This document shows positions 2,788 through 32,244 of a DNA stretch of 64,000 nucleotides, one piece after another. Positions within the stretch are counted from its first letter, which is position 1; every line of letters begins with the position of its first letter. The stretch comes from an uncultured delta proteobacterium (GTDB lineage: Bacteria; Desulfobacterota; RBG-13-43-22), in contig CAWBOS010000006.1 of NCBI GenBank assembly GCA_963790475.1, positions 320,001-384,000 of the forward strand. The letters run 5' to 3'. A program made the position numbers and the translations under genes. The notes beneath the pieces are model-generated. The model made no database searches. It was not told the origin of the DNA and saw nothing but the letters and a program-made list of their open reading frames with translations.

Positions 2788-3813
2788 TCATACTAATTTA
2801 AACCGCTTCCGGAGTCTAACAGAAAGATCGCGGATCATTTGAAACGCCATTTCGACGGTTTTCTCTCCATCAGGATTGACCAGACAACAGGTGGCCGGGG
2901 AAATCAAGCTTCGAGAAATGAGAAATTCCAAGTCAAGACCTTTTTGGGCTAACAAATTCCAGTGACCTGTCAACCGTTCCTCCAGGGAATCAAGTTGCTC
3001 ATTTTCAAAGGGTTCGAAGTTGGTGGGCACAATCCCCCAGACCAAGACCCCGCCCCGGTCCAAAAATCTCCGAATGGATTTATGGTAGGAAGAGAAAACC
3101 TCCCCATTGGTATAAATATCGAGGGAAAGTATATCCAGGTCCAACCCTAAAAGGAAATCCCAATCGGGATTACCGCATAAATGGACCCCCCGGGGCTTTT
3201 CGATCAGGGAAAAGAAATATTCCATATCTTTTCGAGCGGCCTGGTCGCCATACCCGGCCATGGCGCTGAACAAGAATTGCAGCCCCGGTTCATCTACATA
3301 CATGAAGGCATTGGTATTTTTTCTTTTTAATCGGGTTAGCTGGGCGTTGACCCGCTTGGCCATAAATTCAAGTAAAAAAGGGCGGACCGTATCATCAAAA
3401 ATGATCGGCCGTCCTTCTTCGTCCTGGACATTGAATCCAAAACTAATCGGTCCTTCCATCTGGCCGCGGATGGCCGGCCGATCCGACAGATCGAGTTCCA
3501 GATAGCGGTGATAGACCACCGAATACTTTGGGCTGATATCAAAATAATCCGGTTCCTCAAAATGGCTCAAGGCCTCTTCCAATTCAAGGGCAAACTTTTC
3601 TTGTGAGAAACGCAAGGTCCTTTTTTCCAGATCCAGAAGGATACCGGGAAAGTGTTCCGAGGCCTGGACATACATATCTTCATAATAGCTGACATGGGGC
3701 AACTGGGGCCAAAAAGGGATATCCAGGGACAGGGCGGCGGAAAGGGCCTGATTCACATCCTTATGGGGCATGACGGCCATGGCCGTGGTCAACAGATTTC
3801 CCGGAATGGGCAT
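2788..3813 (-). CDS. Folate-independent core methionine synthase (MetE C-terminal half, MesB-like)
   Basis: 341 aa single barrel; PFWPQLP, DEP, zinc-ligand GVHLCGNPDW and SPATCCL motifs. Confidence 0.7.
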   Translation of the reverse strand: MPIPGNLLTTAMAVMPHKDVNQALSAALSLDIPFWPQLPHVSYYEDMYVQASEHFPGILLDLEKRTLRFSQEKFALELEEALSHFEEPDYFDISPKYSVVYHRYLELDLSDRPAIRGQMEGPISFGFNVQDEEGRPIIFDDTVRPFLLEFMAKRVNAQLTRLKRKNTNAFMYVDEPGLQFLFSAMAGYGDQAARKDMEYFFSLIEKPRGVHLCGNPDWDFLLGLDLDILSLDIYTNGEVFSSYHKSIRRFLDRGGVLVWGIVPTNFEPFENEQLDSLEERLTGHWNLLAQKGLDLEFLISRSLISPATCCLVNPDGEKTVEMAFQMIRDLSVRLRKRFKLV

Positions 3814-3955
3814 AATAAAATTCCTTGTAAAGAAGGTCTAAGGCCCAAGGTTCAAGGTTTAAGAAAAAACCGAATCCCCTAAACCCTAAACCTTATACCT
3901 TATACCCGAAGTTTTTGATTCCTCAGAACTTCAAACCAAATTTTCTTAAAAAATT

Positions 3956-5026
3956 TCATGAGCTATGCCTGATATGCACAATTTCTCCATCCCGGACCAC
4001 ATACTCCTTACCTTCCAGGCGCAGCCTTCCTTTTTGTTTAACCTGGTTCAAACCACCCAGTTCGATCAACTCATCATATCCCGCCACCTCGGCCCGGATG
4101 AAACCCCTGGCCAAATCGGAATGGATGGCGGCCGCGGCCTCCAGGGCAGTGGCCCCGCGCCGGATGGTCCAGGCCCGGACTTCGTCTTCTCCGACGGTGA
4201 AAAAGGATTGCAGGCCGAGCAGGTCATAGGAAAGCTGCAACACCCGGGTGCGGCTCAATTCAGTAATGGCGTATTCCTCCATAAACAGGGCGGCATCCTC
4301 AGGGGATAATTCGGAGATCTCCTTTTCCAGCCGGGCGGACAGATGGACCACGGCACTGGCTTGATGGGAGTAAGAGATCTGGGGTCCCTGCCCGTCATCT
4401 CCGGTGTTGACCACCACTAAAACCGGTTTAAAGGACAAAAATCCGTAGCCCCGCAAGGGTTTGATTTCCTCGGGGGTCAAGCCCATATCCCGCAGGGGTT
4501 TTTCTTGTTCCAGGGCCGTCCTCATAGTTTCAAATACTGTTTTCTCTTTGAGGGCCAGGTCCCGGTCCACAGCCCCTTTTTTCAAACCCTCCAACAACCG
4601 GTCATACCGGCGTTCAACGGTTGTGAGGTCTTGGAGTAAGAATTCGGTATCGAGAAGGGCCAGATCCCGGACGGGATTGATAGACCCTTCACTATGGGCT
4701 ACGGCCGGATTCTCAAAGGCCCGCAAGACATGGATAAAGGCATCCATCTGACCCAGGAGGTTGACGAAGGCCCCGGGAAGGCCTTTTTTACTAACCCCTT
4801 TATCCAGCCCGGCGATGTCGGCAAAGGTGACTTGGGCATAAATGGTCTTTTTAGGTTTAAAAATCTTAGTAAGCTGATCCACACGGGGATCGGGAACTTC
4901 AGCCACGGCCGTATGGATTTCCAATTGGCCGGAAGAAAAAGCCGAGATCGCCTTTTCCCCTCCGGCCAGGGCTTGAAAAAGGGTCGTCTTTCCTGTTTGG
5001 GGGAGTCCGATTATTCCAATTTGCAT
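3956..5026 (-). CDS. ychF: Redox-regulated ATPase YchF
   Basis: GIIGLPQTGKTT, VPDPR, DIAGL, FFTVGEDEVRAWT, IHSDLARGFIRAEV, EGKEYVVRDG. Confidence 0.95.
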   Translation of the reverse strand: MQIGIIGLPQTGKTTLFQALAGGEKAISAFSSGQLEIHTAVAEVPDPRVDQLTKIFKPKKTIYAQVTFADIAGLDKGVSKKGLPGAFVNLLGQMDAFIHVLRAFENPAVAHSEGSINPVRDLALLDTEFLLQDLTTVERRYDRLLEGLKKGAVDRDLALKEKTVFETMRTALEQEKPLRDMGLTPEEIKPLRGYGFLSFKPVLVVVNTGDDGQGPQISYSHQASAVVHLSARLEKEISELSPEDAALFMEEYAITELSRTRVLQLSYDLLGLQSFFTVGEDEVRAWTIRRGATALEAAAAIHSDLARGFIRAEVAGYDELIELGGLNQVKQKGRLRLEGKEYVVRDGEIVHIRHSS

Positions 5027-21230: not shown

Positions 21231-22538
21231 ATGGATGCTTTAATTCTTTCCCGGCTGCAGTTCGCGGCGGCCACTATTTTTCATTTTTTATTTGTGCCCT
21301 TGACCCTGGGTCTTTCCATTATGATCGCCATCATGGAAAACCGTTACGCTCGAACGGGAGAAGAGGTCTATCTGAAAATGACCCGATTCTGGGGCAAAAT
21401 CTTTCTGATCAATTTTGCCCTGGGGATCGTCACCGGCATTACCCTCGAATTCCAGTTCGGTACCAACTGGTCCCGTTATTCCGCCTTTGTGGGGGACATC
21501 TTCGGATCCCTCCTGGCCATAGAAGCCACGGCGGCCTTTTTTCTGGAATCCACTTTTATCGGGATCTGGATCTTCGGCTGGAAAAAGCTTTCGCCTAAGG
21601 CCCATGCCATAGTGATGTGGTTTGTTGCCGGGGCTTCCACCCTTTCCGCTCTCTGGATACTTACGGCCAATGCCTGGATGCAACATCCGGTAGGTTATGT
21701 ATTGCGAAACGGACGGGCGGAACTGGAGAGCTTCACCGCCGTCATTTTTCAAGAATTCGCCATCCTGGAAATTCTCCACACCCTCAGTGCCGCATATATT
21801 CTAAGCGCCTTTTTTGTCATGGGGATCAGCGCCTATCATCTCCTCAAAAAACAGCATGTTGATTTCTTCACCCGTTCCTTTCGAATCGCCTTAACCTTCG
21901 GACTGATCTTTTCCCTTTTTGAAGTGGTGGAAGGCCACCTTCACGGCTCCGATCTGGCGGTGAAACAACCGGCCAAATTGGCGGCCATGGAAGCCCACTG
22001 GGAGACCTCCAAGCAGGCCCCGGTCTATCTTTTCGCTCTTCCTGATGAGACTAATGAAAAAAATACCCTTGAAATTCTACCCCTGCCGGGGGTGCTCAGT
22101 TTGCTGGCCACCCATTCCCTGGATGGAGTAGTCAAGGGCCTCAAAGATATCCCAAGGGGTGAAAGGCCGCCGGTACTTATCAATTTTGCCTCATTTAAAA
22201 CCATGGTTGCCTTAGGCATGTATTTCGTCCTCATGACCCTGGTCGGTTTTTTCAAAAGAAACCGTCTTTCGGAAAGCCCGGGCTATTTGAAACTGATGCT
22301 CTATTCAATCCCCCTGCCTTATATCGCCATTGAATTGGGATGGGTCCTGGCCGAAGTGGGGCGCCAGCCCTGGATTGTTTACGGCGTCATGAAGACTTCC
22401 GAAGCCTTCTCTCCTGTGGCCACGTCCCAGGTTTTGACCAGTTTAATAGCCTTTATCCTGATTTATGGAATTTTGGGGGCTATTGGATACTTTCTCATCA
22501 TCAGGCAGGCCAGAAAAGGGCCCGAGCTTGCCGGATGA
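21231..22538 (+). CDS. cydA: Cytochrome bd quinol oxidase subunit I
   Basis: RLQFA...FHFLFVPLT, EFQFGTNW, QPAKLAAME, GRQPW. Confidence 0.97.
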   Translation: MDALILSRLQFAAATIFHFLFVPLTLGLSIMIAIMENRYARTGEEVYLKMTRFWGKIFLINFALGIVTGITLEFQFGTNWSRYSAFVGDIFGSLLAIEATAAFFLESTFIGIWIFGWKKLSPKAHAIVMWFVAGASTLSALWILTANAWMQHPVGYVLRNGRAELESFTAVIFQEFAILEILHTLSAAYILSAFFVMGISAYHLLKKQHVDFFTRSFRIALTFGLIFSLFEVVEGHLHGSDLAVKQPAKLAAMEAHWETSKQAPVYLFALPDETNEKNTLEILPLPGVLSLLATHSLDGVVKGLKDIPRGERPPVLINFASFKTMVALGMYFVLMTLVGFFKRNRLSESPGYLKLMLYSIPLPYIAIELGWVLAEVGRQPWIVYGVMKTSEAFSPVATSQVLTSLIAFILIYGILGAIGYFLIIRQARKGPELAG

Positions 22539-22593
22539 TTGAACCATCAAAGGGGCCTTCTATTACCAGTCAGCTCAAGAAAGGAGAGGGACA

Positions 22594-23610
22594 ATGATTT
22601 TACAAGATATATGGTTTTTCGTCTGGGGGCTGTTATGGGCCATTTATTTTTTAACCGATGGTTTCGATCTGGGGATAGGATCGCTTCTTCCTTTCCTGGG
22701 GAAAGATGAGGATTCAAAAAAAGTCATGATTGCGGCTATGGGACCTTTATGGGACGGCAATGAGGTCTGGTTGCTGACCGCGGGAGGAGTAACCTTCGCC
22801 GCTTTTCCTCAAGTCTATGCCGTCATGTTCAGCTCCCTCTATTCGGCATTGATGCTGATCCTCTTTGCCCTCATCCTGCGGGGGGTTTCTCTGGAATTCA
22901 GAAGTAAAATCGAAAGCCCGGGCTGGAAGAAGCTGTGGGATACCTGTCTGTTCCTGGGAAGTCTATTGCCGGCCATTCTCTTCGGGGCGGCTTTTGCCAA
23001 TATTTTTCGGGGAATTCCTTTTGATCAAAACGGCGTTTATCAGGGCACTCTCTTCACCCTGCTCAATCCCTATGGGCTTCTTGGGGGCATCCTCTTTCTC
23101 TTTCTTTTTTTGGTGCATGGCGCCAACTGGCTGGCCATCAAAAGCGATGGGGAACTCCAGGAAAGGGCGATTAAAACCGGAAAATATTTGTGGCCACTTT
23201 TGTTAATCGCCGCCGTCATCTTTCTCGGAGCTACCTACTATTCAACCCCTCTTTACAATAATTATTTCAACCATCCCCTTCTTTTCTTAGTCATCCTGGT
23301 GACCGTATCGGCCCTGCTGGGCATCCGTTTTTTCTTGAGTTCCGGAAGTCTGTGGAAGGCTTGGTTTTCCTCTGCCCTGACCATTATAGGCGCTACCTTT
23401 TTTGGGATCATCGGCCTGTATCCGAATATGTTCCCATCAAACCTGAACCCGGTTTATAGCCTGACAGCCCACAATGCCTCTTCCAGTCCCTTGACCTTGA
23501 AAATAATGTTGACCGTGGCCCTTATTTTTGTGCCCGTTGTCCTGGTTTATCAAATCTGGACCTACGTTCTGTTTAAAGGAAAAGTCAGCAGCGAGGATTT
23601 GTCTTACTGA
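22594..23610 (+). CDS. cydB: Cytochrome bd quinol oxidase subunit II
   Basis: DGFDLGIG, PLWDGNEVWL, AASS-like PLTLKIM. Confidence 0.97.
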   Translation: MILQDIWFFVWGLLWAIYFLTDGFDLGIGSLLPFLGKDEDSKKVMIAAMGPLWDGNEVWLLTAGGVTFAAFPQVYAVMFSSLYSALMLILFALILRGVSLEFRSKIESPGWKKLWDTCLFLGSLLPAILFGAAFANIFRGIPFDQNGVYQGTLFTLLNPYGLLGGILFLFLFLVHGANWLAIKSDGELQERAIKTGKYLWPLLLIAAVIFLGATYYSTPLYNNYFNHPLLFLVILVTVSALLGIRFFLSSGSLWKAWFSSALTIIGATFFGIIGLYPNMFPSNLNPVYSLTAHNASSSPLTLKIMLTVALIFVPVVLVYQIWTYVLFKGKVSSEDLSY

Positions 23611-23782: not shown

Positions 23783-24208
23783 ATGGAAACATTAGTCATC
23801 GAAAATCAGATTGGAGCCGCCAAAGGTACCGACGTGGAAAAGGAGGTCATGGATAATTTCCGGGGCGAGACCGCCGAGGTGGGTCTTTATCTGGCTATGG
23901 CCCGGCAGGCCGAACGTGAAGGCTATCCCGAAGTGGCCAGGGCTTTGAAGGATATCGCCTGGGATGAGGCCAACCATGCGGCTCAGTTCGCTGAGCTAAA
24001 TGGCCTTATCTCCCCCAGCACCAAGGAAAACATCGAACGGATGCTGAAGGGAGAACGGATGGCCAATAAAGGTAAACAAGAGGCGTCAATAAAGGCGGCC
24101 CAATGCGGTCTGATTTCCTGCCAGATCTTTTTCGGCGAATCGGCCAGGGATGAGGGCCGTCATGCCCGGGCCTTGGAAGGACTCTTGAAGCGCCACTTTT
24201 CGTCATAA
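23783..24208 (+). CDS. Rubrerythrin/ferritin-like diiron protein (no rubredoxin domain)
   Basis: GET.EVG.YLAMARQAEREGYPEVA, DEANHA, DEGRHA. Confidence 0.88.
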   Translation: METLVIENQIGAAKGTDVEKEVMDNFRGETAEVGLYLAMARQAEREGYPEVARALKDIAWDEANHAAQFAELNGLISPSTKENIERMLKGERMANKGKQEASIKAAQCGLISCQIFFGESARDEGRHARALEGLLKRHFSS

Positions 24209-26941: not shown

Positions 26942-29230
26942 TTATTGCCGGCCCATGGCCACATTAAAGTCCCCCTCCGGATCATGGTGCGCATCGCCCT
27001 GAACATCCACCACAACTTTTTTCAAGGTCCCGGAGAAAGAAAAAGGACACTGGTAATTTTCGCTCACCGGGGTGGTTGTGTCGCGTCCGATTTCGAGGCC
27101 CTCTGAAATCGAATTGCGGATAGGGACGGTGCGGGCAATCTTCCCCTCCCCGACTTTGGCCTTGTTGATAAATAGCGCCCCCTCGCCTTGGTGCTCCCCG
27201 GTTTTGCTGAAGACAAACCGCAGGGTCGAAGGGCCTTTGGGCACCTCGACTTCGGAAGTCACAACATAGTGCGCGGTCCCCAAAAAGTTGTGGTCATATA
27301 TCAGGCGATTGTTCTGCAGGTAGAGGGTGTAGCCTCCGAACCGGCCTCCCCGGGCCAGCAGGACACCTTCGGCCCCGCCTTCGGGAATTTCGACCTCGGC
27401 GCTGATGGAGTGGGAACGGTTCCGGGTGTCGGGAGCGATCCCCTCCGGGATCATGGAGGTGCCCGGGTAAAAGGTAAAAGAAGTCCTACCCTGGTCCAGC
27501 CGGGGTTTTTGATCGGTAAAGCGCAGACCGGTGCGATCATCGAGGGGCAGGACCTGGTATTTACCGGCCTCAGCCCACCAGCGATCCACCAGTTCGCGGA
27601 GCTTTCCGGGTTCCGATTGAGCCAGGTCGTGACACTCGGAAAAATCCTGGTCCAGGTGGTATAACTCCCAGTGGTCGTCGTCGAAGTTTCCCCCTGCCCT
27701 CGGCGAGTGGTAGGTCACGGCCTTCCAGCCATCGTGCCAGATACCCCGGTGTCCGAACATTTCGTAGTACTGCACTTCCTTACGGGTTGGGGCCTGCGGG
27801 TCTTCGAAGCTGTAAAGCATGCTCAGGCCCTCGATGGGTTTTTGGGTGATCCCGTTCAGCACTTCGGGCGCCTCAATCCCGATGGCTTCCAGTACGGTCG
27901 GGACTATGTCGGTAACGTGATGATACTGAGTACGAATGCCCTCCTGCACCCGGATGCCCTTGGGCCAGTGCCGGATGCCCATGGGCCAGTGAATGATGAG
28001 GGGGTCCCGGACACCACCGCCGTGGGTGTTCTGCTTGTAGCGCTTGAGGGGCGTGTTTCCGGCCATGGCCCAGCCCCTGGGGTAGTGGTTGAAAGTCCGG
28101 GGCCCGCCGAGTTCGTCGATCCGGGCCAGGTTCTCCTCCAGGGTCTCGGGCAGGGCGTTGAAAAAGCGGTTCTCATTGAGCGAACCATGCCAGTATCCCT
28201 CCTGGCTGGCCCCGTTGTCTGAAATCAGGATGATCAGCGTATTATCCATCTGATCGGTTTCTTCCAGGAAATCGAGGAAGCGGCCGATATGATGATCGGT
28301 GTGGTCCATAAACCCGGCAAAGACCTCCTGCATCCGGGTGTACAGACGACGCTGGTCATCGGAGAGTTCGGCCCAGGCCTTGATCCCCGGGTTGCGCGGG
28401 GCAAGCTCGGTTTCGGGAGGAACGATCCCCATCTCCTTCTGCCGGGCCAGGACCTCCTCGCGCTCCGCGTCCCAGCCCCGGTCGAACCTGCCTTTGTACT
28501 TGGCGATAAATTCCTTGGGGGCGTGGTGTGGGGCATGGCAGGCGCCGAAGGCCATCCACAGGAAAAAGGGCTTGTCCGGGTCGATCTGCCGCTGGTCTAA
28601 AACGAACTCTATGGATTTGTCGACGATGTCCTCGGTCAGGTGATAACCGGGGCGGTCCGGCTGCTGGATCCGATGATTGTCGTAAACCAGGTCCGGGTTC
28701 CACTGACTGGTATCCCCTCCCAGGAATCCGTAAAAACGATCGAATCCCATTCCCAGCGGCCAGCGGTCGTAGGGGCCGGCGGCGCTGGTCTCTTCCTCCG
28801 GGGTGTTATGCCACTTGCCCACGGCAAAGGTGCCGTAGCCGCTTTCTCTGAGGATATGGGCCACGGTCCCGGCACTTTTCGGAATCCGGCCATTGTATCC
28901 GGGGTATCCGGTGGAGAGTTCGGTGATGATCCCCGTCCCGACTGAATGGTGGTTTCGTCCGGTGAGCAGACAGGACCTGGAGGGTGAGCACAAGGCCGTG
29001 GTGTGAAAGTTGTTGTAGCGCAGACCGCCGGCCGCCAGGCGGTCCATGTTGGGTGTTTCAATCCCGGCTCCGTAGCAACCCAGTTGGGCGAAGCCGACGT
29101 CGTCCAGGATGATGAAGACGACATTCGGGCTTCCTTTGGGGGCCCGCTTGGGTTTCGGCCACCAGGGGGTAGACTCGTTGATAGTTCGGCCGATGACTCC
29201 CTGCCAGGGTTCGGACTTCCGGTTTGACAT
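26942..29230 (-). CDS. Arylsulfatase (Cys-type, AtsA-like)
   Basis: LDDVG, CSPSR formylglycine motif, GKWH, SDNG; no signal peptide. Confidence 0.93.
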   Translation of the reverse strand: MSNRKSEPWQGVIGRTINESTPWWPKPKRAPKGSPNVVFIILDDVGFAQLGCYGAGIETPNMDRLAAGGLRYNNFHTTALCSPSRSCLLTGRNHHSVGTGIITELSTGYPGYNGRIPKSAGTVAHILRESGYGTFAVGKWHNTPEEETSAAGPYDRWPLGMGFDRFYGFLGGDTSQWNPDLVYDNHRIQQPDRPGYHLTEDIVDKSIEFVLDQRQIDPDKPFFLWMAFGACHAPHHAPKEFIAKYKGRFDRGWDAEREEVLARQKEMGIVPPETELAPRNPGIKAWAELSDDQRRLYTRMQEVFAGFMDHTDHHIGRFLDFLEETDQMDNTLIILISDNGASQEGYWHGSLNENRFFNALPETLEENLARIDELGGPRTFNHYPRGWAMAGNTPLKRYKQNTHGGGVRDPLIIHWPMGIRHWPKGIRVQEGIRTQYHHVTDIVPTVLEAIGIEAPEVLNGITQKPIEGLSMLYSFEDPQAPTRKEVQYYEMFGHRGIWHDGWKAVTYHSPRAGGNFDDDHWELYHLDQDFSECHDLAQSEPGKLRELVDRWWAEAGKYQVLPLDDRTGLRFTDQKPRLDQGRTSFTFYPGTSMIPEGIAPDTRNRSHSISAEVEIPEGGAEGVLLARGGRFGGYTLYLQNNRLIYDHNFLGTAHYVVTSEVEVPKGPSTLRFVFSKTGEHQGEGALFINKAKVGEGKIARTVPIRNSISEGLEIGRDTTTPVSENYQCPFSFSGTLKKVVVDVQGDAHHDPEGDFNVAMGRQ

Positions 29231-29410: not shown

Positions 29411-30067
29411 TTAAATCCGAAATTTTCGGGCATGTTCTTCTGACCAGAAGAAAACACACTCCGTTCAGAATGAATCGATAATACTATCGTCTTTGAGTTT
29501 GGAAAAATCTATATCCGGTACAAGAATTACCGGCTGGCATCTTTCGTCTCTGGCTTTATAGTGTAAATCGTTGTCAATCTCGATTCCCATGGGACGAGAG
29601 CAGTGGGCGCATTCGGTTTCAATGTGCACAATCAGATGTTCGTTTCGCAATTTCCCTTGCACGAAGGGCGTTGCAAAGGCATCTGCCGCTCAGGCGGCAT
29701 ACAATTTTTCACCGGTACTAAAAGTAATTTTGTGAGGCGTTTCATCAACTGTCACCGGATAGGCCCAGACCACCTCCCCCTCTCTGTTTCGGTAGAGAAA
29801 GGTCAGGCGCTTTTCCAAATAATCCAAAGCTTTTTTAACACGATCGACAGGAGAGCCAATGTCGTCCGATATAAATTCCGGGGATAAAGGCTTGCCTTTA
29901 CGCGGAAGTTCTCTCACCACAAAATGATGAACCCGGCGATATTCTTCGGATAGAGCGCCTTGCTCTTTTTCAAATCTTCTTTTTCCCTTGGCAATTTGTT
30001 TTTGCCATAAAAATGGCGGCACATTTACTATATACCGCCACAATCCGAGCATGAGTTTGTTACTCAT
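29411..30067 (-). CDS. MerB-like organometallic lyase, predicted selenoprotein with two Sec (U126, U201), 218 aa
   Basis: ORFs 29690-30067 and 29465-29662 are in one frame; readthrough of TGA 29690-92 gives LYAA-U-AADA (MerB YAWCALD) and of TGA 29465-67 gives DSF-U-TECVFFWSEEHA (MerB FCCHVHFFAS); AYP..ETPH upstream; ends at TAA 29411. Confidence 0.85.
29427..29463 (-). promoter_or_regulatory. SECIS-like hairpin after the second UGA
   Basis: CGGAGTGTGTTTTCTTCT-GGTC-AGAAGAACATGCCCG; G-initiated apical loop 19 nt after UGA. Confidence 0.75.
29654..29679 (-). promoter_or_regulatory. SECIS-like hairpin after the first UGA
   Basis: CCTTTGCAAC-GCCCTTC-GTGCAAGGG, loop about 20 nt after UGA. Confidence 0.6.
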
Positions 30068-30143
30068 AGATCACCCCCGGGGCATGTTCTCGAAGGTCCC
30101 CTTGCCCTACCGATATGACCTCTTAAGCAAAGTTCCTCGATGA

Positions 30144-30692
30144 TTAGAACAAGAACTTTGCCCCGAAGAGAACAGAGACAAAGAAATTATCACTCCCCCG
30201 GACATCAAGATTGGTGAAATTGAAGAGGACGGTACCATCCAACGATATCGAATTTGTCAATTTATACTCGGCCCCCAAACCTAAAGGAATAAGGAAATTG
30301 GTATCGTTTTCGCTTCCCCCTCCTCCCGGTTTAAAATCAGCATAGGCCAATCCGAGGCCAGCCTGGACGTGGGGTTTGAGGTTTGGAAGGCCCCCGAGGT
30401 CGAAGGTATATTTTGCCTGGACAGTTAGACCCATTAAAAAGAGATCATTGGTGAATCCCATTTGGAGAAGCGGACCGACTGAGAACTCATTGGTAAGGTA
30501 GTAATCGCCGGAAAAGGCAACAGCAAAGGCGGTATGATCAGGTGTATTGGCTATAAAACCCACAGCAGGTTCAAAGGTAAACCTCCCCATTCTGTCTGCG
30601 GCCCCGGCGAATGAGACTTGTGAAACAATCACCAAGGTAATTACGACCCCGACCAGGAAAGGCATGATGTTGGATGGCTTTGTTGCTTTCAT
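30144..30692 (-). CDS. Outer-membrane 8-stranded beta-barrel protein (OmpA/OmpW-like)
   Basis: ATG 30692 behind AAAGGAG, signal peptide ending AGA, alternating strands (PHVQAGLG, LGAEYKL), terminal Phe. Confidence 0.78.
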   Translation of the reverse strand: MKATKPSNIMPFLVGVVITLVIVSQVSFAGAADRMGRFTFEPAVGFIANTPDHTAFAVAFSGDYYLTNEFSVGPLLQMGFTNDLFLMGLTVQAKYTFDLGGLPNLKPHVQAGLGLAYADFKPGGGGSENDTNFLIPLGLGAEYKLTNSISLDGTVLFNFTNLDVRGSDNFFVSVLFGAKFLF

Positions 30693-31001
30693 TGTTAAAT
30701 CTCCTTTTCGCATTTTATTGGTTATGAAGGCATTGACAAATTGACACTGTAAAATCGGTTTGGATGGTCGGCCCCCGGCTCCCGGAGGACTCAATAAGAT
30801 ATTAATTTCTGTTATGTTGGGTTAAGAAAACGCCAACATAAGTCAAATATAACCTTGGCTTCTTTACAAAAAAGTTTAGCAGGAACGCTCTCAAGAATCA
30901 ATAAGATCAAGTCTGTATTTTCGTCCTGAGAAAACTGTATTTTATCGACCAAGACGCAGAAATGGAACTCTTGGAACAACCGTCTCAGGTTCGCTGAAGA
31001 T

Positions 31002-31655
31002 TTATTTCGTGCCGGGTTGCATCCCCAGGCGAAGTCCCAGCCCCAGCGCTCCTGTGGCCACCATCTGGATAAGATGACAAATTCCATTATGGTCGAACGG
31101 GAACACGATGCGAAGCGATACATCACTGGCCTGCACCCCCGCAGCAGCCAGATTGCACAGGATTGCCAGAGAGACGACTCCGGCGCCCTTCAACCGCCTG
31201 GTGGCAGCAAGAAATGAGTAGATCGTCAGCGCGATCAGCGTCGCAGCGGCCGCATAAACGGCGAAGACGATGAATCCCCCCAGCAAAAACGCGGTCAGCG
31301 CGAAAATGGCAACCCCCACTCCAATGCTCCAGGGGATGAGACGCCCCGCCACGGCTCGCCCCCGCCAATCATAGACAGCGCCCACTAAGAATAAGGCGGC
31401 GAGAATTTCCAAGGTTAAAATGAGAGGCATCCAAAGGGCTGCACGCATGGAATTCGGCAGCTCGAATCCATGGACAATAGCCCCGAGAAAAGACGAAAAG
31501 GCTATGAGGCCAAATACCCAGCACCATAGCCCGGTTCTCCATCGATCACCTGATGCGGTTCGCCACAGGTATACGGCCATCATGACAGCCTCGAAGGCAA
31601 GCAGGGCATCGGTGGCGCTGGTCGTCAGCTCAGTCGGTTGGATAGTCATAATCAT
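31002..31655 (-). CDS. Multi-pass membrane protein (DUF6962-like)
   Basis: About 7 TM helices; PTE.TTSATD, GAIVHG, FDHNGICHLIQ. Confidence 0.65.
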   Translation of the reverse strand: MIMTIQPTELTTSATDALLAFEAVMMAVYLWRTASGDRWRTGLWCWVFGLIAFSSFLGAIVHGFELPNSMRAALWMPLILTLEILAALFLVGAVYDWRGRAVAGRLIPWSIGVGVAIFALTAFLLGGFIVFAVYAAAATLIALTIYSFLAATRRLKGAGVVSLAILCNLAAAGVQASDVSLRIVFPFDHNGICHLIQMVATGALGLGLRLGMQPGTK

Positions 31656-31698
31656 GGCGAGCGTGTTGATTCAACCCCCTTCCGTCTCTTGCTTGTTC

Positions 31699-32244
31699 TT
31701 ACGGCACTCTAAAATCAAAAAAATTGTGGCACTTGTTACAATAGGATTCCGATTTACGATGAGCCTTGTGGCACAGACCGCATTCGATATTTCCTGAATG
31801 AGATTCATGGGGATTGGGTGTCAAACCCCTGGTCAATTTGGCTACCTCCGGATAGTTTTTATGACAGGAGAGGCATTGGGCGGTGGTCAGCGCCTTGTGA
31901 GAAGTGGCTTCGCCGTGGCAGTTCCGGCAGGAGATCCCCTTCCATAGATGCAGATGGCTCAAGGGGACTTTACCCCAAAGGTTTTGTTCCTTACGACTGT
32001 GACAGCCCTTACAGGTGTTACCGGACAGGCTCTGGGTCTCGACATGCCCATTCGGGAGAACCCGATCATTGCCGTGGCAGGCCGCGCAGTCTCCGTTGTC
32101 GGTAATCTCCAACCGCTTCGATTCGGCGAAGGCTGTTCCGGCCTGATTCTCTTCCGACCCGAGATAAACATTGGCCATAACTGGAAGAAGAAGGTCCATT
32201 CCGAGAACAGGGAGGTATTTCAATATAGAGCGTTTCTGCCGCAC
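31699..32244 (-). CDS. Hexaheme c-type cytochrome (c3/small tetraheme-like)
   Basis: Six CxxCH: CAACH, CKGCH, CRNCH, CLSCH, CGLCH, CNKCH; NPHESH. Confidence 0.88.
   Translation of the reverse strand: MRQKRSILKYLPVLGMDLLLPVMANVYLGSEENQAGTAFAESKRLEITDNGDCAACHGNDRVLPNGHVETQSLSGNTCKGCHSRKEQNLWGKVPLSHLHLWKGISCRNCHGEATSHKALTTAQCLSCHKNYPEVAKLTRGLTPNPHESHSGNIECGLCHKAHRKSESYCNKCHNFFDFRVP

Follow-up and report, generated by a model that had tools for sequence, protein, structure and literature searches.

Within a stretch of 64,000 nucleotides (nt) from an uncultured delta proteobacterium (assembly GCA_963790475.1, contig CAWBOS010000006.1, positions 320,001 to 384,000; hereafter the window), the minus strand at 29414..30067 carries a reading frame in which two TGA codons stand at the positions of the two catalytic cysteines of the organomercurial lyase MerB. 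We consider it very probable that this locus encodes an uncatalogued selenoprotein of the MerB superfamily with selenocysteine (Sec) as both metal-binding nucleophiles, likely an organometal lyase, and that the window holds a derived allele of the gene.

Two in-frame TGA codons and the hairpins behind them

The frame opens with an ATG at 30067-30065, just downstream of a purine-rich run that resembles a Shine-Dalgarno site (GGGGGTGAT, 30070..30078, minus strand). It consists of 125 codons, a first TGA (29692-29690), 74 codons, a second TGA (29467-29465), 17 codons and a TAA (29413-29411). Translation with TGA as Sec gives 218 residues, with U126 in the motif YAA-U-AAD-AF and U201 in SF-U-TECVFFWSEEH; an aspartate, Asp129, lies three codons past the first TGA. 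The open reading frame (ORF) listing splits the gene in two, 29690..30067 (125 aa) and 29465..29662. An earlier interpretation made from the letters alone (the sequence-only reading) had placed two ORFs and a 17-codon tail in one frame, broken by two TGAs with a hairpin after each, and its coordinates hold, on the minus strand. Its read-through length of 218 aa is correct for the window copy and does not describe the family, in which 247-250 aa is approximately typical; the 17-codon tail arose through a deletion described below.

Related loci were collected from scans of one genome per species plus metagenomes, 160 in all. The codon aligned with the first TGA is TGA in 160/160, and the codon aligned with the second is TGA in all 155 loci that reach this position; the other five have the first-site TGA and then the contig end. 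No internal stop other than these two TGAs was found in the 160 loci, and the recurrence of both codons goes well past coincidence. Full-length orthologs were present in 8 of 60 relatives (53-82% identity), each with exactly two TGAs, aligned at 126 and 201. In an even sample of the phylum, 26 of 401 genomes carried the family, with 28 matches and none without TGA, and among 34 Pfam-MerB matches in 61 relatives 33 had two TGAs and one had a single TGA. One species-level scan found the family in 169 species genomes; the 80 records listed from these belong for the most part to Thermodesulfobacteriota, and some carry the labels Nitrospirota, Chloroflexota or other phyla. One match (G260) counts three TGAs, and the second copy in another genome (G287) is split over two frames.

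The ratio of nonsynonymous to synonymous substitution rates (dN/dS; Nei-Gojobori, random pairs) had a median of 0.229 in the segment upstream of the TGAs, 0.240 in the middle segment and 0.236 in the one downstream. The usable pairs numbered 357, 726 and 374 of 1500 for the three segments, respectively, and were few because dS was near saturation. The equal ratios indicate that all three segments are translated under equal constraint, and the loss of conservation past the TGAs that the sequence-only reading had named as fatal to its proposal is not seen.

The genome (6.34 Mb in 20 contigs; completeness 100 and contamination 9.68) encodes the complete Sec machinery on which that reading had also made its proposal depend, with all four components above their family cut-offs: selA (629 bits), selB (391 bits), selD (394 bits) and tRNA-Sec (74 bits). 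The selD gene carries an in-frame TGA of its own, and the tRNA-Sec gene is on the same contig as the window. The intact selA lies on a 3.2-kb contig (C20). A second selA-like locus (C13:443305-444664; L002-L005) is divided into four frame pieces, one with a TAA inside, and is either a broken copy or part of the 9.68% contamination.

Each TGA is followed by a hairpin that is a candidate bacterial Sec insertion sequence (SECIS) element. The apical hairpin after the first TGA (29669-29653, minus strand) pairs GCCCUU with AAGGG(A) around the loop CGUGC, which lies 30-34 nt past the U of UGA; the closing pair in the window copy is G-A, and a weaker lower helix occupies 29670-29689. The consensus fold has the apical element GCCCUU-CGUGC-AAGGGC at columns 24-40. 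The hairpin after the second TGA (29457-29430, minus strand) reads GUGU.UUCUUCU/GGUC/AGAAGAA.CAUGC, with its loop 23-26 nt past UGA, and encodes V-F-F-W-S-E-E-H; its consensus comprises 11 pairs at columns 11-38 with the loop GGUC.

Because the hairpins lie inside coding sequence, their pairing was compared with a null of 300 sets in which each codon was swapped for a synonymous codon drawn from the family's own usage. Canonical pairs made up 98.1% of hairpin 1 against 67.7% in the null (standard deviation 1.2%, z=25) and 96.6% of hairpin 2 against 85.6% (z=15), and no set of the 300 reached the observed pairing for either. Both loops are invariant in nucleotides, CGUGC in 116/116 and GGUC in 124/124 unique sequences. 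Compensatory changes were seen at two pairs of hairpin 2 (U-A 104 / C-G 15; U-A 118 / C-G 5) and at one of hairpin 1 (G-C 92 / U-A 10). The SECIS-like hairpins of the sequence-only reading are thus conserved, by this comparative measure, far beyond what protein coding needs, and both are candidates for the SECIS role.

A large protein database returned 2306 matching proteins, from which 270 fetched matches were tabulated. The largest group, 169, ends exactly at residue 125, which bears out the earlier statement that gene callers miss the gene. In a further 35 both sites are W, and another 16 carry Cys at the first site and stop after residue 200. Two (P0122 and P0126) combine Ser at site 1 with Cys at site 2, and in one (P0023) the sites are Gly and Leu. 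Among the matches listed, the 125-aa stubs have no Pfam domain, and the W/W proteins lie on contigs of 0.9-2.9 kb. None of 43 database proteins (the W/W calls plus a few fragments) matched a collected locus exactly. Near-identical pairs could be compared instead: P0027, which has W, with a locus that has TGA (L143, 97.7% identity), and P0009 with L135 (90% identity), where W faces the two catalytic TGAs and, past the gene end, two more. Because W also appears opposite terminal TGA stops, W in these calls means TGA; Trp as a true residue, which the sequence-only reading had listed among the findings that would count against it, was rejected, and the W/W proteins are artefacts that arise when genes on short contigs are called under code 4.

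Cysteine homologs exist at both Sec positions: at site 1 in the 16 proteins above, and at site 2 in P0122 and P0126, where MerB Cys159 also aligns. Homologs with Cys or TGA are what the sequence-only reading had proposed to look for. Close pairs document Cys/Sec interchange at site 1, with P0016 (Cys) 89% identical to L141 (TGA), and P0079 and P0110 72-74% identical to L187 and L197. Neither the 401 phylum genomes nor the 160 loci yielded DNA of a homolog with Cys at site 1.

The database entries are what would speak for taking the TGAs as true stops, between small ORFs or in a broken gene, or as Trp or Gly codons under code 4 or 25: the calls are 125-aa fragments in 169/270 and W/W in 35/270, and P0023 reads G and L. 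This explanation is hardly credible. TGA is an ordinary stop in the genome, where it terminates 345 of 1006 ORFs of at least 400 codons (on three contigs), and many genes of the family themselves end in TGA, opposite which the code-4 calls again place W. Against true stops stand the equally low dN/dS after each TGA, the lack of any other stop in the 160 loci, and the presence of both the Sec machinery and the hairpins. We conclude from the comparative sequence evidence that both TGAs are real Sec codons, and infer Sec insertion itself.

MerB fold, catalytic positions and relation to SaoL

The Pfam MerB domain (PF03243) matches residues 106-217 of the read-through product with 43.6 bits against a gathering cut-off of 27, and so spans both TGAs. 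The product does not reach the cut-offs of the NCBIfam MerB equivalog models NF009710 (52.6 vs 193 bits) and NF033555 (43.8 vs 200). A profile of nine orthologs searched against solved structures matched MerB2 (5C17) with an expectation (E) value of 3.6e-5 and MerB with 2.5e-4 to 3.9e-3. In the profile alignments U126, D129 and U201 lie opposite MerB Cys96, Asp99 and Cys159, and all three are invariant in 101 sequences.

An AlphaFold2 model was made for a full-length ortholog of 82% identity, with an alignment of 101 sequences, rather than for the truncated product of the window. Its predicted local distance difference test score (pLDDT) was 90.1 and its predicted template modelling score (pTM) 0.88. 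Foldseek with this model gave MerB or MerB2 as each of the top 11 PDB matches (E 1.9e-11 to 8.4e-7), and the next match had E 0.12. VIA-align superposed it on MerB2 with Z 23.0 (205/206 residues, root-mean-square deviation 2.6) and on MerB with Z 20.5, and the superposition extends to the C-terminus of both. As modelled, the protein has the MerB fold, and the MerB-like assignment of the sequence-only reading stands on domain, model and structure matches alike. That reading had also taken both catalytic Cys positions to be UGA, which the alignments of U126, U201 and D129 confirm. The literal Cys96/Asp99/Cys159 triad is not present in the product, since the Asp is kept and both Cys positions are UGA (Sec); the Sec/Sec triad is equivalent to that of MerB as chemistry and not identical as residues.

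Compared with MerB and MerB2 (EC 4.99.1.2; PDB 3F0O, 3F0P and 5C17), the family has the same fold from end to end (Z 20.5-23.0, 205-206 residues) and catalytic positions that align one for one. It differs in having Sec for both Cys, in its 15-20% identity and in scores below the NF009710 and NF033555 cut-offs. The two-Sec hosts are also anaerobes, and the window's genome has no mer operon and no MerA above cut-off.

A CxxC lies between the Sec sites (C153-C156, window 29600-29611, minus strand), with C153 invariant and C156 at least 90% conserved; C153 aligns with a MerB Cys. In many orthologs one to three further Cys follow 15-25 residues beyond the CxxC, and the window copy and its closest relative have one only.

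The nearest described system is SaoL, a MerB-like organometallic lyase selenoprotein of the SAO locus (Haft & Gwadz, bioRxiv 10.1101/2022.07.06.499078; NCBIfam NF040728). According to the accessible text of that preprint, the single Sec of SaoL belongs to a Cys-Sec dipeptide at the second site, the first site is Cys, and the gene is part of a nine-gene locus; the authors caution that Sec at the metal site may alter the substrate. The two families share the MerB superfamily domain (PF03243), Sec at the MerB Cys159 position, a retained Asp, anaerobic hosts and truncation at UGA in databases. SaoL has Cys99/Asp102/Sec162, as far as the same text describes it, whereas the two-Sec family has Sec at both sites and F-U, without Cys, at the second. 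The two-Sec proteins are about 250 aa long, with an N-terminal extension and the CxxC, in contrast to the 213 aa of SaoL. Against the SaoL model (cut-off 140) the window product scored 45.4 bits and the full-length ortholog 41.5. The SAO neighbourhood is also lacking: no Sao family occurs among the 12 proteins neighbouring the window gene or among the recurrent neighbours in 80 genomic loci.

In a 2026 review on the selenoproteins of prokaryotes (PMC13188914, section 7), Table 1 names 119 families, of which SaoL alone is MerB-like, and a 2022 review has one MerB-like entry, with the same accession as in the 2026 review. Searches of main texts on selenocysteine with alkylmercury or organomercurial lyase, MerB or SaoL gave nothing past the SaoL preprint and reviews, and no model of NCBIfam release 20.0 takes the two-Sec proteins above cut-off. 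Judged by sequence comparison, the two-Sec family is an uncatalogued selenoprotein branch of the MerB superfamily, neither true MerB nor SaoL. What is new relative to SaoL is that both catalytic nucleophiles are predicted to be Sec, each with its own candidate recoding hairpin.

The 86-nt deletion in the window copy

The window copy aligns with four close orthologs (L027, L080, L041 and L120) with a single gap of 86 nt, which falls at window 29421/29422; a short AAT(AT) repeat flanks it. The frame shifts because 86 is not a multiple of three, and a tail of K-F-R-I-stop replaces approximately 33 conserved residues. The tail past the second TGA is 17 aa long in the window copy and at least 47 aa in 8/8 orthologs; the same minimum holds for almost every one of the 155 loci extending to Sec201, one of which has 32. 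Two sequencing runs were informative at the junction. A 240-nt contig from run X1 is identical to the window across it, and is not independent because X1 is possibly the source sample. Run X2 contains a relative, approximately 93% identical, with 86 extra letters exactly between 29421 and 29422. Among the runs listed as containing the stretch, none was of RNA. The window copy is a derived, 3'-deleted allele.

In the ortholog model the lost part comprises the end of helix 210-219, the strand 225-229 and the helix 230-245; in the alignments, its counterpart in MerB and MerB2 is the C-terminal strand and helix. Because the last strand and helix of the fold are gone, the window copy is probably impaired, and whether it is inactive is close to a toss-up. 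The sequence-only reading had proposed a Sec-dependent lyase and did not note the frameshifting deletion; membership in a two-Sec branch of the MerB superfamily stands, and the copy is not intact. Because the copy is truncated, the value of this particular window is smaller than that of the family.

One alternative holds that the family is real and the window copy a decaying pseudogene, with the four type-2 paralogs of the genome (described below) carrying the needed function. We give this slightly less than an even chance. It accounts for a deletion seen against both the four close orthologs and the X2 contig, for a tail well short of that in nearly all other loci, and for the loss of a strand, a helix and five positions conserved to at least 90%; the window copy also lacks an upstream regulator, unlike 38 of 80 other loci. 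It fits less well with an intact start codon, Shine-Dalgarno-like run, TGA pair and hairpin pair, with the lack of any other stop, and with the retention of all three catalytic residues. The dN/dS between the window copy and its closest ortholog is 0.16 (212 codons), as in pairs that exclude the window (0.13-0.17), and the deletion is therefore recent, indeed very recent if this is a pseudogene, or the short form is still selected.

Possible function, mercury genes, paralogs and gene neighbourhood

In MerB, two thiolates bind mercury and an Asp protonates the leaving carbon. If translation follows the usual bacterial Sec pathway, each UGA is served by the hairpin 11-40 nt beyond it, which would recruit SelB with Sec-tRNA(Sec) for Sec insertion, so that each polypeptide would receive two Sec, each through the hairpin of its own UGA; termination products of 125 and 200 residues are probably also made. 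The selenolates of U126 and U201, with Asp129, would occupy the places of MerB Cys96, Cys159 and Asp99. In the most likely reaction the two selenolates would bind the cation of an organometal, with organomercurials such as methylmercury as the most plausible candidates, and the carboxylate would then protonolyse the carbon-metal bond. Selenolates would capture substrate more tightly at low levels, and, more speculatively, the C153/C156 CxxC could accept the metal from the active site or act as reductant for a diselenide. The gene would act outside a mer operon and, in other genomes, often in a two-gene unit with a MarR- or MerR-type regulator. Given the fold and the triad, lyase activity is plausible and methylmercury a possible substrate.

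The Pfam MerB model matches five loci in the genome, and two in-frame TGAs are present in every one. Four are type-2 paralogs of the window gene (L198-L201: C1:164319-165017(+); C12:1018372-1019061(+); C12:163892-164596(-); C10:951126-951803(-)), with approximately 25% identity to the window type (type 1) and the motifs WFGQ-U-GFE and A-U-STMNLFRSEEH. They resemble it in the Pfam MerB match, two TGAs at the same positions, a GGUC-loop hairpin after the second TGA, and scores below the MerB and SaoL cut-offs. They differ in having U-x-x-E rather than U-x-x-D, another C-terminal region and no N-terminal extension, and their gene contexts are heterogeneous. Among 120 database matches to one type-2 paralog, a motif count assigned 59 to a form that has Cys at the first site and ends at the second, and 41 to the W/W form, with at least one site unassigned in 18/120.

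The sequence-only reading had pictured a lyase, possibly for methylmercury, in an anaerobe. The host is an anaerobe with adjacent hgcA and hgcB (G000:C10, approximately 447.0-448.7 kb; L215:1559-3235, minus strand), which score 437.5 vs 275 bits and 110.1 vs 99 bits, respectively, against the NCBIfam cut-offs. Because both genes are above cut-off, this organism can be regarded as a putative mercury methylator. The HgcA frame contains one TGA, close to the N-terminus, and continues past it. HgcA was looked for with the cap-helix motif, and the family assignment rests on the NCBIfam scores. Coupling to hgcA as functional evidence was rejected, as the co-occurrence across 61 relatives is loose and confounded by relatedness.

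Several observations weigh against an organometal lyase. Identity to characterised MerB is 15-20%, the profile matches to PDB structures have E values of 4e-5 to 4e-3, and the NCBIfam MerB cut-offs are missed. The window copy itself lacks G225, Y227, Q232, Q241 and F245, all at least 90% conserved. No MerA above cut-off was found in the genome (best 354 vs 454 bits), and because mer genes are likewise missing nearby, the fate of an Hg(II) product would go unexplained; a bis-selenolate-Hg product might also be very hard to release. Although hgcA occurs in 7 of 9 type-1 carriers, a MerB-like gene is missing from 11 hgcA-positive genomes in other families. Finally, the up to five paralogs per genome, with the change from Asp to Glu in type 2 and their heterogeneous contexts, suggest substrates other than mercury compounds.

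Some of these points agree with a MerB-fold selenoprotein that is not a lyase, acting in soft-metal binding, trafficking or sensing, or in diselenide or selenenylsulfide redox through U126, U201 and the CxxC. Besides the missing mer operon and MerA and the multiple paralogs, the conservation of C153 and C156 between the Sec sites speaks for such a role, and the accessible parts of two sources add to it: the Cu(I)-binding protein NosL shares the MerB structure (review, PMC10114901), and the SaoL authors caution that Sec may change the substrate (bioRxiv 10.1101/2022.07.06.499078). Pure binding or redox would have no need for the proton-donor Asp, which is invariant in 101/101 type-1 sequences, and the whole MerB fold is kept (Z 20-23). 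We regard a non-lyase function as unlikely and retain an organometal lyase as the preferred reading.

A broader proposal, which we think doubtful, is that the two-Sec MerB-like proteins of both types are unrecognised, MerA-independent methylmercury degraders of anaerobic, often hgcAB-bearing bacteria, with selenolates tuned to very low natural levels of organomercurials. Surveys of demethylation potential in sediments, soils and wetlands that are based on merB would be blind to two-Sec genes, because these genes are cut at UGA in databases; the family is practically invisible there, as 125-aa stubs, code-4 miscalls and 200-aa fragments. If the proteins cleaved Hg-C bonds, the same anaerobes could make and destroy methylmercury, with a bearing on its net accumulation. 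For enzymology, the site would then be a rare case of a metal bound by two selenolates.

The window gene is flanked by a sulfatase gene (26942-29230) and an outer-membrane beta-barrel gene (30144-30794), with DUF6962, cytochrome c3, MaoC, ABC ATPase and cydAB genes as other neighbours. The sequence-only reading had noted no mer or sao neighbours; none of the 12 neighbouring proteins belongs to a mer family (merR, merT/P, merA), and the same holds for Sao, as given above. These neighbours are not conserved around the family gene in other genomes. Across the 80 genomic loci (L038-L117) only one kind of neighbour recurs, a regulator immediately upstream in the same orientation, at approximately 3350-3960 in locus coordinates; it is MarR-type in 22 and MerR-type in 16. 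The window copy has neither type upstream. The pattern suggests a ligand-inducible two-gene unit in the other genomes. The regions 21231-23610 (+), 23783-24208 (+) and 31002-32244 (-) of the window hold cydAB (cytochrome bd oxidase), a rubrerythrin-like gene, the DUF6962 membrane protein and a cytochrome c3-type gene; this set has no link to the two-Sec gene and is compatible with an oxygen-defending anaerobe.

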